A DNA stretch of 48,556 bases from a virus (Duplodnaviria; Heunggongvirae; Uroviricota; Caudoviricetes). A program made the position numbers and the translations under genes. This document shows, in pieces, positions 28,436-47,004 of this stretch. The notes under the pieces were generated by a model. It was not told where the DNA came from and did no database searches. It was given only the letters and a program-made list of their open reading frames with translations. Each line of letters starts with the position of its first letter. Position 1 is the stretch's first letter. Where the stretch lies: IMG/VR virus record IMGVR_UViG_2706794697_000013; one strand, given 5' to 3'.

Positions 28436-28929
28436 TGCTGACCCCACAAACAGATTTCACGCTCAATCTCACGACGAGTCATGAGACCTTTCCATTGCTT
28501 ACCGCCAGCATATGTCCAGCGACGTAGCTGATCACATGCGCCTTTGATATCGCCCTGGTTTATTTTGCGAAGAAGCGTCGATGTTCTGAAATTGCCAGCA
28601 CCCACGTTGTAAACGAATGAGTAAAGAGCGCCGCGCGTTGTTTCCGGTATATCGACTTTGATGTACGGGTTAATTTGTCTGGCGACAGTGGCAAGGTCTT
28701 TATTCAAGAGTGTTTTGCATTCTGCTTTGGTATACGTTTTACCGAGCATGATGTCTTTTCCTGTATGCCCGTGACATACAGTCCATACACCAACAATATC
28801 TTTGTATGGTATGTAGCTGACACCTTCCAGACCATCGTTACCACTTGGGCCAGTGATTAACACTGATGCTATAGCAATTGCTCCGCCACCAATAGCAGCA
28901 GCAACGACTTTTCGTAATGATGGAGGCAT
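28432..28929 (-). CDS. SAR endolysin (phage 21 R-like lysozyme)
   Basis: 165 aa; N-terminal Gly/Ala-rich signal-anchor-release segment; stop overlaps Rz start, start overlaps holin stop. Confidence 0.8.
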
Positions 28930-29144
28930 TATTCACCTCTCGCAGCCTTGCGCTTATCTTCTTTAATCTTGAAATAAAGGTTTGTCAGGTACGTCAGCAG
29001 GCCAAATACCAGACTACCCAGCACACCGATTGCAGCCCACTGTGACGGAGTTACTCTATCGAGCAACTGTAAAAACCAGTAGCCAGCACTGCCTGCGGAG
29101 GTGCCGTAGGCAATGCCTGTTGAAATTTTGTCCATGGATTTCAT
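28929..29144 (-). CDS. Pinholin (phage 21 S-like) with dual-start motif
   Basis: 71 aa from [14 protein letters not shown].. with GGAGGT RBS 7 nt upstream; two TM segments; ORF track extends 19 codons further upstream. Confidence 0.8.
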
Positions 29145-29246
29145 AGCCTCACCTCCGCACGGAACGGATGGCATAGTTATTATGTGTAGGCTTTCAGACA
29201 CATCAATCAGAGCCTTAATTGATATATATGCTGGAGACGATGCAAT

Positions 29247-29395: not shown

Positions 29396-29791
29396 CTAAC
29401 CTCGCATGTCAAAGCCAGATTTCTGAAAATCTCTGTAGACTTCCGGATTGTTGAAGGCCGGAAATTTGGCTTTATGAGCTGCGGACTTTATCGCTTCGCA
29501 ATAGGCTTTATCACCGTTACTGGTAGATATTTTTAACGCCGTGCCATCCTGAGAGAATTCCATATGCAACCTGCATTTTTTCCCTTTCCAGTTATGCGGC
29601 TCATCAAGTTTGGCATTAATTGCAGCTCTGATTCCCCGCGCTTGCGCCCCCCATTCATCCTGATCATCCCAGCGTCCTGAACTGCAACTACCTGTAGCAG
29701 TAGTTTTGTGGCAATCTGAAGGGTGTAAAGGTGTGCATCCCGCAACAAAACCGACCCAAAAAGTCAACATAACGATTTTCTTTAATCCCAC
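29396..29791 (-). CDS. Lipoprotein with TolA C-terminal (domain III)-like domain, copy 2
   Basis: Probable GTG start with GAGGAG RBS; lipobox VAGC; C-terminal ..KKCRLHMEFSQDGTALKISTSNGDKAYCEAIKSAAHKAKFPAF..PEVYRDF.. resembles TolA domain III as recalled. Confidence 0.65.
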   Translation of the reverse strand: MGLKKIVMLTFWVGFVAGCTPLHPSDCHKTTATGSCSSGRWDDQDEWGAQARGIRAAINAKLDEPHNWKGKKCRLHMEFSQDGTALKISTSNGDKAYCEAIKSAAHKAKFPAFNNPEVYRDFQKSGFDMRG

Positions 29792-29941: not shown

Positions 29942-30370
29942 TCAGGGTTTAAAATCCAGCACCCCATTTTGAAATACTTTATATACTTCCGGCGAAGGGG
30001 GGGCAGGTATATCAGCATTCTTTATCGCATTCATCGCTTCACGACATAAATCGAGGTCTCCACTTTCTCTTTTAACCTCCAGTAGAAGGCCATTCGGGGC
30101 CATATGCATTCTCAGTGTACACTCTTTTCCTGAATACTTACTCGCATCCCCGAACTGTTTTTCGATGGCGCTCTTGATTTGATGGGCATACAGACGGATA
30201 TCCTCACTAACATCAGAAGTACGTTCAGATGAACTCACATACTGTGTCTCTATTGCTTTATCGGAGTAATATGATGTACGGTCATGATAATTTGTCGATA
30301 CAGCATCAGTGCACCCGATAATAATCCCACTAATAATCAACGTAAGAATTGATGCGCTACGAAAACCCAT
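29942..30370 (-). CDS. Lipoprotein with TolA C-terminal (domain III)-like domain, copy 1
   Basis: ATG with GAGGAAAA RBS; lipobox IIGC; C-terminus YAHQIKSAIEKQFGDASKYSGKECTLRMHMAPNGLLLEVKRESGDLDLCREAMNAIKNADIPAPPSPEVYKVFQNGVLDFKP closely follows the E. coli TolA C-terminus as recalled. Confidence 0.75.
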   Translation of the reverse strand: MGFRSASILTLIISGIIIGCTDAVSTNYHDRTSYYSDKAIETQYVSSSERTSDVSEDIRLYAHQIKSAIEKQFGDASKYSGKECTLRMHMAPNGLLLEVKRESGDLDLCREAMNAIKNADIPAPPSPEVYKVFQNGVLDFKP

Positions 30371-30960
30371 TTTTCCTCACATATGTCATATAGTAAAGGA
30401 TTATATATACCGTTGTTTTGGACGCTCAAACAGCGAATCAGATCAAATAAAACGCACATTTGTTAACATTTACACAAAGTCTGCGTGGGATATTCTGAAA
30501 GAATATCCATAATGTGGAGAGAATCTATTGAAGTGCATGGTGCCGGGTGCCTCCCGGTGAACAAAATGTTCGTGATACCTGTCGGCGACAGAAAAGGTTA
30601 ATGGTATCACCCCACCGCACAGGGGGATTCACCATGCAGGAGTTTTCTTAGCAAACTCACTGCGCGCCCGGCAACTCCCAACCACATAAAATGCGGAGTT
30701 TGTGGCATTTATGCATATAACTCGCAGGAATTATCTTAAAAAACTGATGTCGATCCGGATTAAAAAGAAGCAGGTCATCATCAGATGACTGGAAAAAAGG
30801 AAAACAAAAAATACTCATCATACAGTTTTGATTGCAGGGATGAGCCTGCTATGCACAATATGCAGAATATAAGCAAGATAAAAATATGCAGGCATATTAT
30901 TTCGGATCTTGTTATTAACACAACCTTTTTAATAATCATTTGGCATACAATAAACCAGCC

Positions 30961-30987
30961 CAAAAAGAACCGCCTAAACAGGCGGTT
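30961..30987 (-). terminator. Rho-independent terminator in the Q-to-lysis intergenic region
   Basis: Minus strand AACCGCC-uguuua-GGCGGUU followed by CUUUUUGGG. Confidence 0.5.
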
Positions 30988-31307
30988 GGTCAATACAAAG
31001 GATGCTTCGTCTTTATTATAGTAATCTGAGGCGTCGGGTGTCTTGTATCAGACAACATATTGTCCCGCTAAACAGCGAATTACAAACCACCCTGCAATGA
31101 TCTCTCATCTCATTTTATATGAGTTGACGACATCAGGATAACGCATCATCAGCCCCTGCCAAGAAATATCAAAACTCCCGCCAGCAATGTGTTATCACAA
31201 TATTGTAAAAAAAACACAGCACCGAAACTATAACTGGTCTCTGTTATAATTTGGAGCAGAAAGACCAGTTGCCCAACTAGCAGCATTCTCCCCTGCTTTC
31301 CTGACGT

Positions 31308-31334
31308 AAAAAAACCGCATTAAGCGGTTTTTTT
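31308..31334. terminator. Bidirectional hairpin terminator downstream of Q (candidate tR')
   Basis: AAAAAAACCGC-ATTAA-GCGGTTTTTTT, symmetric A-run and T-run flanks, about 80 bp past the Q stop. Confidence 0.6.
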
Positions 31335-31414
31335 ACGATGTCCATGTCTGCAATCCGCCTCGCGATACAGCTTTGCGAAGCATAGCAAAATTGAAGCAGT
31401 TTATACGTAAGAAA

Positions 31415-31957
31415 TCAAGCCATTTTCTCAGCAAATGATTCACGCATGGGAATATATAGGGCATACTCAGCAACAGCTAACCAATTAGCAATCCGTTTTT
31501 CGCATGTGCTAAAACACCACTCTGGGTGTGCATCATTTAGCAATTCAGCCATTTTGCGCTTAGTCATCCCCCGCCCTTCATAGCGTTGCCGGAGAATGCA
31601 AATCAATCCTGGATGCTCTGCCAGCACCTCACTTATGACTCGATCAATACATAACGCCTCTGCATCAGTACAATGCGCCAGCCAGCTCTTTTGCTTGCCG
31701 TTGATCATCTCTCGCAAAAACGCTTCCAGCTCAGCTTTCTCTATTCCCGCTTTTTTCATTCTGCGCAGGGCTTCATTAATGGCTGTTTTCGTCAGTTTTT
31801 TGGATGCCAACAACTGATTGAACATATTCCCTGACCTGCCACCGCCAATATACGACCAGCGCCCCCACATACGTAGTTTTCCCTGAATCCAGACACTTTC
31901 CAGCGTGGTGAGGCGAAGGTGTTCTCCGCTTTTTCCTGTATTCGTTGGGTAAATCAT
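31415..31957 (-). CDS. Late gene antiterminator (Q-like)
   Basis: 180 aa ORF directly upstream of the late region, after nin-type genes; family call is by position and general resemblance. Confidence 0.5.
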   Translation of the reverse strand: MIYPTNTGKSGEHLRLTTLESVWIQGKLRMWGRWSYIGGGRSGNMFNQLLASKKLTKTAINEALRRMKKAGIEKAELEAFLREMINGKQKSWLAHCTDAEALCIDRVISEVLAEHPGLICILRQRYEGRGMTKRKMAELLNDAHPEWCFSTCEKRIANWLAVAEYALYIPMRESFAEKMA

Positions 31958-32244: not shown

Positions 32245-32954
32245 TACGCAAACTCCAGTAGTTGTGCGGCCACATTTTCAACTTCCTCCTGAGAGGAGAA
32301 TTTACGGAACAGAATCCAGTTCCACAGCACATTCAGTACAGATTTATAAACCTGCTGAAACTCGACTTCGTCCATATTCGCAAAAGCGATGGATTTTGCC
32401 CGACGCCCACGGCTACCGTCCGGATAAATATGCTCGGTGTAAAATCCGGCCTGAATGGTTACCCACTCGCGGAAAGCCTCAAACGACTTTAGCAACGCCG
32501 TATCCCGGGTTCTACGAGTCGCAACGGTGTTAAGGTATTGCTCTGCGGCATCACTCAGGGCTGGCGTGTGTTCCCGACCAACTGATTCGCACAGGTAATC
32601 AACGAAACCAGACAGCAGTTCTCGTTCGCGAGGCGTGATCGCCCCACCGACCGGAGTCCAGTAATCGAATCCCAGTTGCNNNNNNNNNNNNNNNNNNNNN
32701 NNNNNNNNNNNNNNNNNNNNNNNNNNNNNNNNNNNNNNNNNNNNNNNNNNNNNNNNNNNNNNNNNNNNNNNNNNNNNNNNNNNNNNNNNNNNNNNNNNNN
32801 NNNNNNNNNNNNNNNNNNNNNNNNNNNNNNNNNNNNNNNNNNNNNNNNNNNNNNNNNNNNNNNNNNNNNNNNNNNNNNNNNNNNNNNNNNNNNNNNNNNN
32901 NNNNNNNNNNNNNNNNNNNNNNNNNNGGTGTAAAGCCCCACATAGCATGAACAA
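32244..32954 (-). CDS. Nin-region protein (DUF1367-like), N-terminal part masked by N-run 32680-32926
   Basis: Unmasked C-terminal ~145 aa in frame with the masked stretch; lies between replication genes and ybcO-like gene. Confidence 0.4.
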   Translation of the reverse strand: MFMLCGALHXXXXXXXXXXXXXXXXXXXXXXXXXXXXXXXXXXXXXXXXXXXXXXXXXXXXXXXXXXXXXXXXXXXXXXXXXXXXXXXXXXXQLGFDYWTPVGGAITPRERELLSGFVDYLCESVGREHTPALSDAAEQYLNTVATRRTRDTALLKSFEAFREWVTIQAGFYTEHIYPDGSRGRRAKSIAFANMDEVEFQQVYKSVLNVLWNWILFRKFSSQEEVENVAAQLLEFA

Positions 32955-46628: not shown

Positions 46629-46823
46629 ATGAGATATGACAATGTTAAACCATGTCCATTTTGTGGTTGTCCATCAGTAACGGTGAAAGCCATTTCAGGA
46701 TATTACCGAGCGAAGTGTAACGGATGCGAATCCCGAACCGGTTATGGTGGAAGTGAAAAAGAAGCACTCGAACGATGAAATAAACGAACCACTGGAAATA
46801 ATAATGGAGGTGTTCATGTATAA
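46629..46823 (+). CDS. ralR: Restriction alleviation protein RalR (Lar)
   Basis: 64 aa MRYDNVKPCPFCGCPSVTVKAISGYYRAKCNGCESRTGYGGSEKEALERWNKR.. read from DNA. Confidence 0.8.
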
Positions 46824-47004
46824 AATTACCGCCACTATTGAAAAGGAAGGTGGCACTCCTACTAACTGGACAAGATATTCAAAATCTAAACTAACGAAAT
46901 CAGAATGCGAAAAAATGCTCTCAGGTAAAAAAGAAGCAGGCGTTTCCAGAGAGCAGAAAGTAAAACTGATAAATTTTAATTGCGAGAAACTTCAGTCCTC
47001 GTGA
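46816..47004 (+). CDS. ydaC: YdaC
   Basis: 62 aa from MYKITATIEKEGGTPTNWTRYSKSKLTKSECEKM..; ATG overlaps ralR stop. Confidence 0.6.
   Translation: MYKITATIEKEGGTPTNWTRYSKSKLTKSECEKMLSGKKEAGVSREQKVKLINFNCEKLQSS

Follow-up and report, generated by a model that had tools for sequence, protein, structure and literature searches.

We report that the interval between a Q-type antiterminator gene and the late genes of an E. coli prophage is in all probability a Rac-type lambdoid late-gene regulatory cassette, with Q, the promoter pR', a pause element and the terminator tR', that would be read on the minus strand. The interval lies in a stretch of DNA of 48,556 nt (hereafter the window, to which coordinates refer unless another record is named), and the evidence consists of the homology of the gene product to Q21 and of the family-wide conservation of a promoter layout, of a pause-like element and of the position and orientation of the terminator. 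The first-pass annotation of this DNA had proposed a small RNA on the plus strand, antisense to the late transcript, and had offered a late-strand leader ending at tR' as its fallback; the anatomy of the plus-strand RNA (a -10 element, a reverse U-tract approximately 80 nt further on and no ORF on that strand) is there, but every comparative test speaks against it.

The window corresponds to a lambdoid prophage of E. coli, which is assigned to the Rac type because RalA, the RalR antitoxin RNA, is present (Rfam match at 46822-47000 on the minus strand, 225.1 bits). An Rfam match to IS009 is found at 256-454, also on the minus strand (220.9 bits). The 501 bases around the -10/terminator interval show 100% identity to many E. 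coli chromosomes and are present at a coverage of at least 80% in 444 of 5426 complete genomes (approximately 8% of complete E. coli genomes). Among the strains with this variant, CP53 and ATCC 43896 match without a difference over the 501 and 143 nt, respectively, that were compared. In one of the genomes with the identical locus (L001) the region is flanked by trkG and lysis genes and by the DUF1133/DUF1364/DUF1367 trio, and the annotation places a holin, a lysozyme and a lysis protein downstream, with a spanin gene also on the late strand. The late strand of the window is the minus strand, where two moron ORFs and then a P21-type holin (28929-29201; PF04971) come after the ORF at 31415-31957; hence the lysis genes are on the same strand downstream of the Q-like gene, and the interval does lie between Q and the late genes as first described. 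Upstream of Q, a masked run of N (32676-32933) falls inside a DUF1367-like gene, the full ORF of which is unreadable.

The gene at 31415-31957 (minus strand) encodes a protein of 180 aa, which we consider to be a Q-type late antiterminator and a distant member of the Q21 family. The product matches Pfam PF06576 (DUF1133) with 356 bits and, at a borderline score of 26.1 bits, PF06530 (Phage_antitermQ), while a profile built from 15 homologues matches the Q21 structures 6JNX and 6P18 (E-value 1.2e-5) in two collinear segments. Near-identical genes in GenBank phage records are annotated as antitermination protein Q, and a survey using HHpred gave DUF1133 the same Q assignment (PMC8136144). A Q-family gene is thus located immediately upstream on the strand of the terminator. 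A search of a phage database in near and distant modes returned four to six records, and these covered the end of Q and the promoter alone. We also note that a contig with the MAG label Candidatus Nanosynbacter (JARKOR010000130.1; L013) carries a fragment 100% identical to an E. coli DUF1133 protein, which probably represents contamination of the bin.

Promoters were scored with a simple sigma-70 weight matrix on both strands of the window. The standard promoter scan missed the extended -10 element discussed below, and the standard terminator scan missed tR', the A and T runs of which were absorbed into the stem; purpose-written scans were therefore used for both. The candidate pR' (31390..31418, minus strand) is composed of a -35 element TTGATT (31418..31413), TGC (31398..31396) and TTCAAT (31395..31390), with a spacer of 17 nt between TTGATT and TTCAAT that ends in TGc. 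Its score of 10.56 places it among the best approximately 12 sites of the window (top ~0.01%), and at the level of sequence a sigma-70 promoter is accordingly found directly after the Q gene.

The comparison with other DUF1133 loci, taken from 27 places in species-representative genomes and from several E. coli prophages, gives this promoter its weight. In 23 of the 24 loci for which the layout was compared, and which represent many Enterobacteriaceae genera with a DUF1133 protein identity between 51 and 100%, the same fixed arrangement is present: TTGnnn, 14 nt, TGn, TTnAAT, 5 nt and TAnGCT. The last of these elements, which is at an invariant position in 23/24 loci, corresponds in the window to TATGCT (31379..31384, minus strand), a -10-like hexamer preceded by TGc and located 5 nt past TTCAAT. 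We interpret TATGCT as a probable sigma-dependent pause and Q-loading site, although it could alternatively be the true -10. Because TTCAAT is without the usual A at position 2, the late-strand start site is uncertain, and it is predicted near 31383 if TTCAAT is the -10 and near 31372 if TGcTATGCT has this role. The spacer between the -35 element and TGn varies among the DUF1133 protein subgroups (loci L002-L032 and the window). Some subgroups have an 11-bp-spaced direct repeat (AAGTGA...AAGTGA) that is a candidate Q-binding element; in the spacer of the window's subgroup there is no clear direct repeat, and no Q-binding element was identified there.

Transcription from pR' is predicted to give a late-strand leader RNA of approximately 65-75 nt (31308..31383, minus strand) that ends in the U-run of tR'. 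The leader would form a hairpin at its 5' end (GCUUCGC/GCGAGGC) and then the terminator, with a folding energy of -30.1 kcal/mol (z -4.4). The prediction is also consistent with the blocks that blastn detects in diverged E. coli relatives, i.e. 31308-31419 (82%, O157 prophages), 31255-31419 (75-77%) and 31353-31420 (92-94%): the Q side is the anchor of each of these blocks, and one class ends exactly at the edge of the terminator (31308).

The terminator itself (31305..31337) is a perfect 14-nt palindrome with the arms CGTAAAAAAACCGC (31305-31318) and GCGGTTTTTTTACG (31324-31337) and a CCGC-loop-GCGG core, and since A7 and T7 flank this core symmetrically it reads, on paper, as an intrinsic terminator in both directions; on this point the first-pass annotation was correct. 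Its strand is nevertheless strongly supported as the minus (late) strand by the family-wide position and orientation, which bears out the fallback reading of the terminator as tR'. On the minus strand it forms a stem-loop followed by U7 between the promoter and the late genes, and an intrinsic terminator co-directional with Q is present 44-92 nt past the Q stop codon in 26 of 28 loci, compared to 0/28, on either strand, in a control interval 200-340 nt downstream. In the reverse direction 9 of the 28 loci pass a loose test, and an uninterrupted reverse T7 is found in the window's lineage alone. The count of terminator stems did not bear out extensive covariation, which we had considered: it shows mostly one stem (CCCGC/GCGGG, in 19 of 25 loci) together with 20 different loops and three alternative stems.

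From these data we infer the exact start site, the pausing and the Q-dependent read-through, and the switch would operate as follows. A constitutive sigma-70 promoter directly after the Q-like gene would drive transcription of the minus strand, and polymerase starting near 31383 would make the leader of 65-75 nt and stop at the intrinsic terminator (31337-31305). After induction, newly made Q would load at the TATGCT pause and carry polymerase past the terminator, and the read-through transcription would then enter the moron, lysis and structural genes. Should the plus-strand TGTTATAAT fire, the resulting antisense transcript would end at the symmetric terminator, short of pR' and Q.

This arrangement agrees with the definition of a Q cassette by Yin et al. 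(bioRxiv 10.1101/651190), which comprises a promoter, a -10-like pause element close to it and a terminator. Short pR'-tR' RNAs have been described in lambda, 21, 82, P22 and Stx phages (PMC7547250). As in lambda (pR'/6S RNA/tR') and phage 21 (pR'21/Q21), we find Q, a promoter, a -10-like element, a predicted short leader and a terminator ahead of the late genes. The window differs from these cassettes in that its protein belongs to DUF1133 with a marginal similarity to PF06530 (26.1 bits), and in that the hexamer in the -10 position is TTnAAT with an upstream TGn. The predicted leader (65-75 nt) is also shorter than lambda 6S RNA, which is 194 nt. StxS (EcOnc15) resembles the predicted leader in being a short, constitutive RNA of the lysogen that ends at tR' just past pR' (PMC7547250). 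StxS is, however, processed to 74 nt from a longer terminated transcript, binds Hfq and targets stx1AB and rpoS, and it has no sequence similarity to the predicted leader of the window.

Rfam was searched at gathering thresholds over the whole window and by E-value within 30300-31700 and 31200-31420. The model of IsrK from Salmonella Gifsy-1 (RF01394) gives a full-length alignment with the minus-strand leader, but with 21.6 bits on the minus and 20.1 bits on the plus strand the gathering threshold of 50 bits is not reached, and as the plus strand scores almost the same we ascribe the resemblance to the terminator. The sub-threshold matches on both strands (Thr leader, AgrB, isrK and OrzO-P) were all terminator-driven and were rejected as families.

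The cassette is also present in O157 Sakai prophage Sp10 (L110; NC_002695.2 1940011-1940780), where both the DUF1367/DUF1364/DUF1133 trio and the pR'/tR' layout recur; the cassette is directly followed by tRNA-Ile and tRNA-Arg genes, and AgvB1 is found approximately 1.2 kb further on the antisense strand. The O157 Hfq-CRAC peaks (Table S2 of PMC4104026) include none at the Sp10 cassette, but sites within 100 bp of a CDS were filtered out of that data set. EcOnc11/12 of O157 Sakai was considered as the pR' leader of a DUF1133 cassette and rejected, as it follows the spanin gene on the opposite strand. The contexts of PasA-D (holin/lysozyme, LpxR and lambda-type Q), which were compared on the basis of their descriptions, differ from those of the window leader and of the module to its left.

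Several other features were noted on the late strand. A full-length Rfam match to STnc100 (30481-30667, minus strand; 86.6 bits with a gathering threshold of 47) is located between tR' and the first moron ORF, and a 2026 preprint ties STnc100 to the prophage sRNA PasD. Two ORFs at 29942-30370 and 29396-29791 (minus strand; 142 and 131 aa) have the TolA C-terminal domain PF06519 (82.6 and 54.6 bits, respectively) and lipobox-like N-termini (..IIGC and ..VAGC). As judged from these matches the products are prophage-encoded lipoproteins imitating domain III of TolA, and they could conceivably serve as decoys for colicins or filamentous phages. Finally, a promoter-like AAGACA-18-TATAAT (10/12 matches; window 30956-31044, minus strand) is followed approximately 25 nt on by an intrinsic terminator (30987..30968), and this site could give a very short late-strand RNA of approximately 45 nt (fold z -1.4).

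The plus-strand features have to be viewed against the mosaic structure of the interval. A joint between two modules is located at 31254/31255, with TGTTATAAT to its left and the terminator to its right. The left module (31121..31254, 134 nt) is delimited by homology in diverged relatives, which stops at 31252-31254. The right module (31255..31420, minus strand), as defined by the blastn homology classes, comprises the 3' end of Q, pR', the leader, tR' and approximately 50 nt beyond. In O170, E22-type and AST262/O166-type prophages the left module is located approximately 85 nt downstream, in the late direction, of a phage tRNA-Gly gene (L007 and L035-L037). The hairpin that the first-pass annotation had described, built from a perfect 9-bp inverted repeat (AACTGGTCT at 31232-31240 and AGACCAGTT at 31262-31270), spans the joint: each module contributes one arm, and relatives of either module are without the partner arm. 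Such a repeat arises in 19 of 2000 shuffles of 31150-31300 (approximately 1%), and the wider region folds no better than shuffles (z -0.13 on the minus and -1.44 on the plus strand). The ACTGGTCT hairpin is an accident of the recombination joint. It could not be part of a late-strand leader either, as the fallback reading had it, since on that strand it is downstream of tR'.

At the end of the left module is a small conserved palindrome of 26-28 nt (AAACTATAAC-TGGTCTCT-GTTATAATTT, 31225..31252), the stem of which is TATAAC/GTTATA, and for this reason both strands carry -10-like hexamers. With 22 of 26 columns invariant, compared to a mean column identity of 72% for the module, it is the best conserved block; the alignment holds five sequences of which two are near-identical, i.e. 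effectively four lineages. When viral contigs were searched for the conserved core, 71 loci with eight sequence variants were obtained, and two matches (L053 and L072) were dropped as chance matches inside coding DNA. In the window type the -10 reads TGTTATAAT, while others have TGTTATAAT or CGTTATAAT and a third group has TGTTATAGT.

On this background, the plus-strand TGTTATAAT most probably arose incidentally from a conserved, AT-rich palindrome that was recombined next to tR'. It is possible, although we hold it only tentatively, that the palindrome is itself functional, as an RNA hairpin or processing signal of the late transcript or as a recombination linker, with the resemblance to a -10 being incidental. 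Its invariance relative to the rest of the module speaks for such a function, and so does its location at the module edge, exactly where homology breaks; in three other lineages a phage tRNA array precedes it on the late strand. Folding of the hairpin slightly favours the minus strand in three of the four lineages, the gain of approximately 1-3 kcal/mol coming from G-U pairs at positions that are C-A mismatches on the plus strand. Energy differences of this size are small, however, and the remaining lineage shows the opposite; the invariance was sampled in just about four independent lineages, no known motif was recognised in the palindrome, and the two additional pattern matches in viral contigs were due to chance. 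Neither a minus-strand promoter within the palindrome (TATAGT), which would be without a -35 element and without a conserved upstream part, nor an intrinsic terminator from the T8 run at 31207-31214, which has no adequate stem, was retained as a candidate.

A further reading, which we likewise regard as possible but doubtful, is that the 9-mer fires weakly and spuriously and gives an RNA without function, the symmetric terminator serving to insulate pR' and Q from antisense transcription. The extended -10, a consensus match and putative small-RNA promoter, is indeed present at 31242..31250 on the plus strand, inside the conserved palindromic core. The 9-mer TGTTATAAT occurs three times in the window compared to 1.68 expected, and because 27 of 100 shuffles reach this number the 9-mer alone is not above chance; the site is one of 12 in the window (both strands) that score at least 10.24 on the sigma-70 matrix, and it scores as high as pR'. 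For any given terminator, the chance that a site of this strength falls in the 80 nt upstream is approximately 1%, but this is a local value before any look-elsewhere correction and is much less impressive across all terminators in the window. With an A8 tract approximately 30 nt upstream of the consensus extended -10, initiation may well take place, in which case the reverse U-tract would give an RNA of approximately 78 nt. The interval is in horizontally acquired DNA with a GC content of 41-43%, which fits a spurious promoter, and the nine of 28 related terminators that pass the loose reverse test suggest that partial bidirectionality is common in the family. Against this putative insulating role, a clean reverse U-tract is absent from most relatives.

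That the plus strand encodes a functional RNA is, in our view, improbable. This RNA would be approximately 75-80 nt long, start near 31256-31258 and end near 31332-31334 at the reverse U-tract; it would be complementary over its full length to the late transcript across tR' and immediately beyond, and could act as a cis-antisense brake on late or lysis expression or, together with the pR' leader, make up a convergent pair. The consensus TGTTATAAT, one of the 12 high-scoring sites, and a perfect reverse terminator 58 nt downstream of the -10 are consistent with such a gene. So is the coding capacity, since no plus-strand ORF of at least 30 aa crosses the interval; the earlier statement that the interval has no ORF holds for this strand, while on the minus strand two short, unsupported ORFs (45 and 30 aa) overlap it. 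The predicted RNA also folds well (z -4.6), mostly by virtue of the terminator. It would, however, be without the internal hairpin that had been ascribed to it: the 9-bp inverted repeat exists, but TGTTATAAT is within the loop of the AACTGGTCT/AGACCAGTT hairpin, and an RNA starting 6-8 nt after the -10 (31256-31258) keeps the 3' arm only.

There are precedents for an RNA of this kind. The nearest are AsxR and AgvB of O157 prophages, which have their own promoter and terminator, are antisense to the late transcript downstream of pR' and occur as convergent pairs (PMC4104026). These RNAs measure 51-60 nt, including a 3' part of 42 nt that is conserved, and they are located kilobases from pR' near the lysis genes (e.g. 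AgvB1 of Sakai Sp10). With the models for AgvB and AsxR (RF02702/RF02703, accessions according to the Pas preprint) no match was obtained at E-values up to 10 in 30300-31700, at E-values up to 1 in 31200-31420 or at the gathering score in the whole window, and Esr41 likewise gave no Rfam match at E-values up to 10. Lambda OOP and paQ, small constitutive antisense RNAs of the lambdoid regulatory region (cited in PMC7547250), would provide a mechanistic model if the plus-strand RNA exists; they have no sequence relationship to it, and whereas OOP is at the 3' end of cII and paQ inside Q, the antisense target in the window would be an untranslated stretch just past tR'.

The comparative data argue against a conserved gene. 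The promoter and the terminator are on different mosaic modules, and they are not conserved together: the six other variants with the -10 core (approximately three independent lineages) lack any terminator on the plus strand within 250 nt and are directed towards a tRNA gene, while relatives of the terminator module are without the -10. Among the variants elsewhere, the E22-type has lost the TG and the AST262-type carries TATAGT. Antisense promoters facing tR' are not enriched among 26 DUF1133 cassettes (four with at least 8 bits compared to approximately six expected), and the window alone has an antisense site of more than 10 bits. Moreover, pairing of A7 with the U7 tail would leave little single-stranded U-tail for Hfq. 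Conversely, the only lineage with the 9-mer facing tR' is also the only one with an uninterrupted reverse T7, which could reflect co-adaptation and not coincidence. Taken at sequence level, the -10/terminator pair is a juxtaposition peculiar to the window's lineage and not a conserved gene. We therefore give little credence to the idea that a small-RNA gene was born at the mosaic joint in this Rac-type lineage, when recombination put the promoter 58 nt from tR' and the terminator gained its reverse U-tract, its antisense product of approximately 78 nt being convergent with the pR' leader. If true, base pairing of this RNA to the read-through late transcript, or to the terminator of the leader, would damp leaky late or lysis expression in lysogens; if the 9-mer fires, the locus would cleanly illustrate how module shuffling can assemble a small-RNA gene.

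In summary, the finding reduces to a textbook lambdoid late switch and is as such mostly of little consequence. Its wider meaning concerns DUF1133, a domain of unknown function present in thousands of enterobacterial prophages, the members of which become readable as Q21-related antiterminators. The DUF1133 promoter layout appears to be undescribed in the literature that we searched, and it provides a template for the annotation of late promoters and pR' leader RNAs in such prophages.
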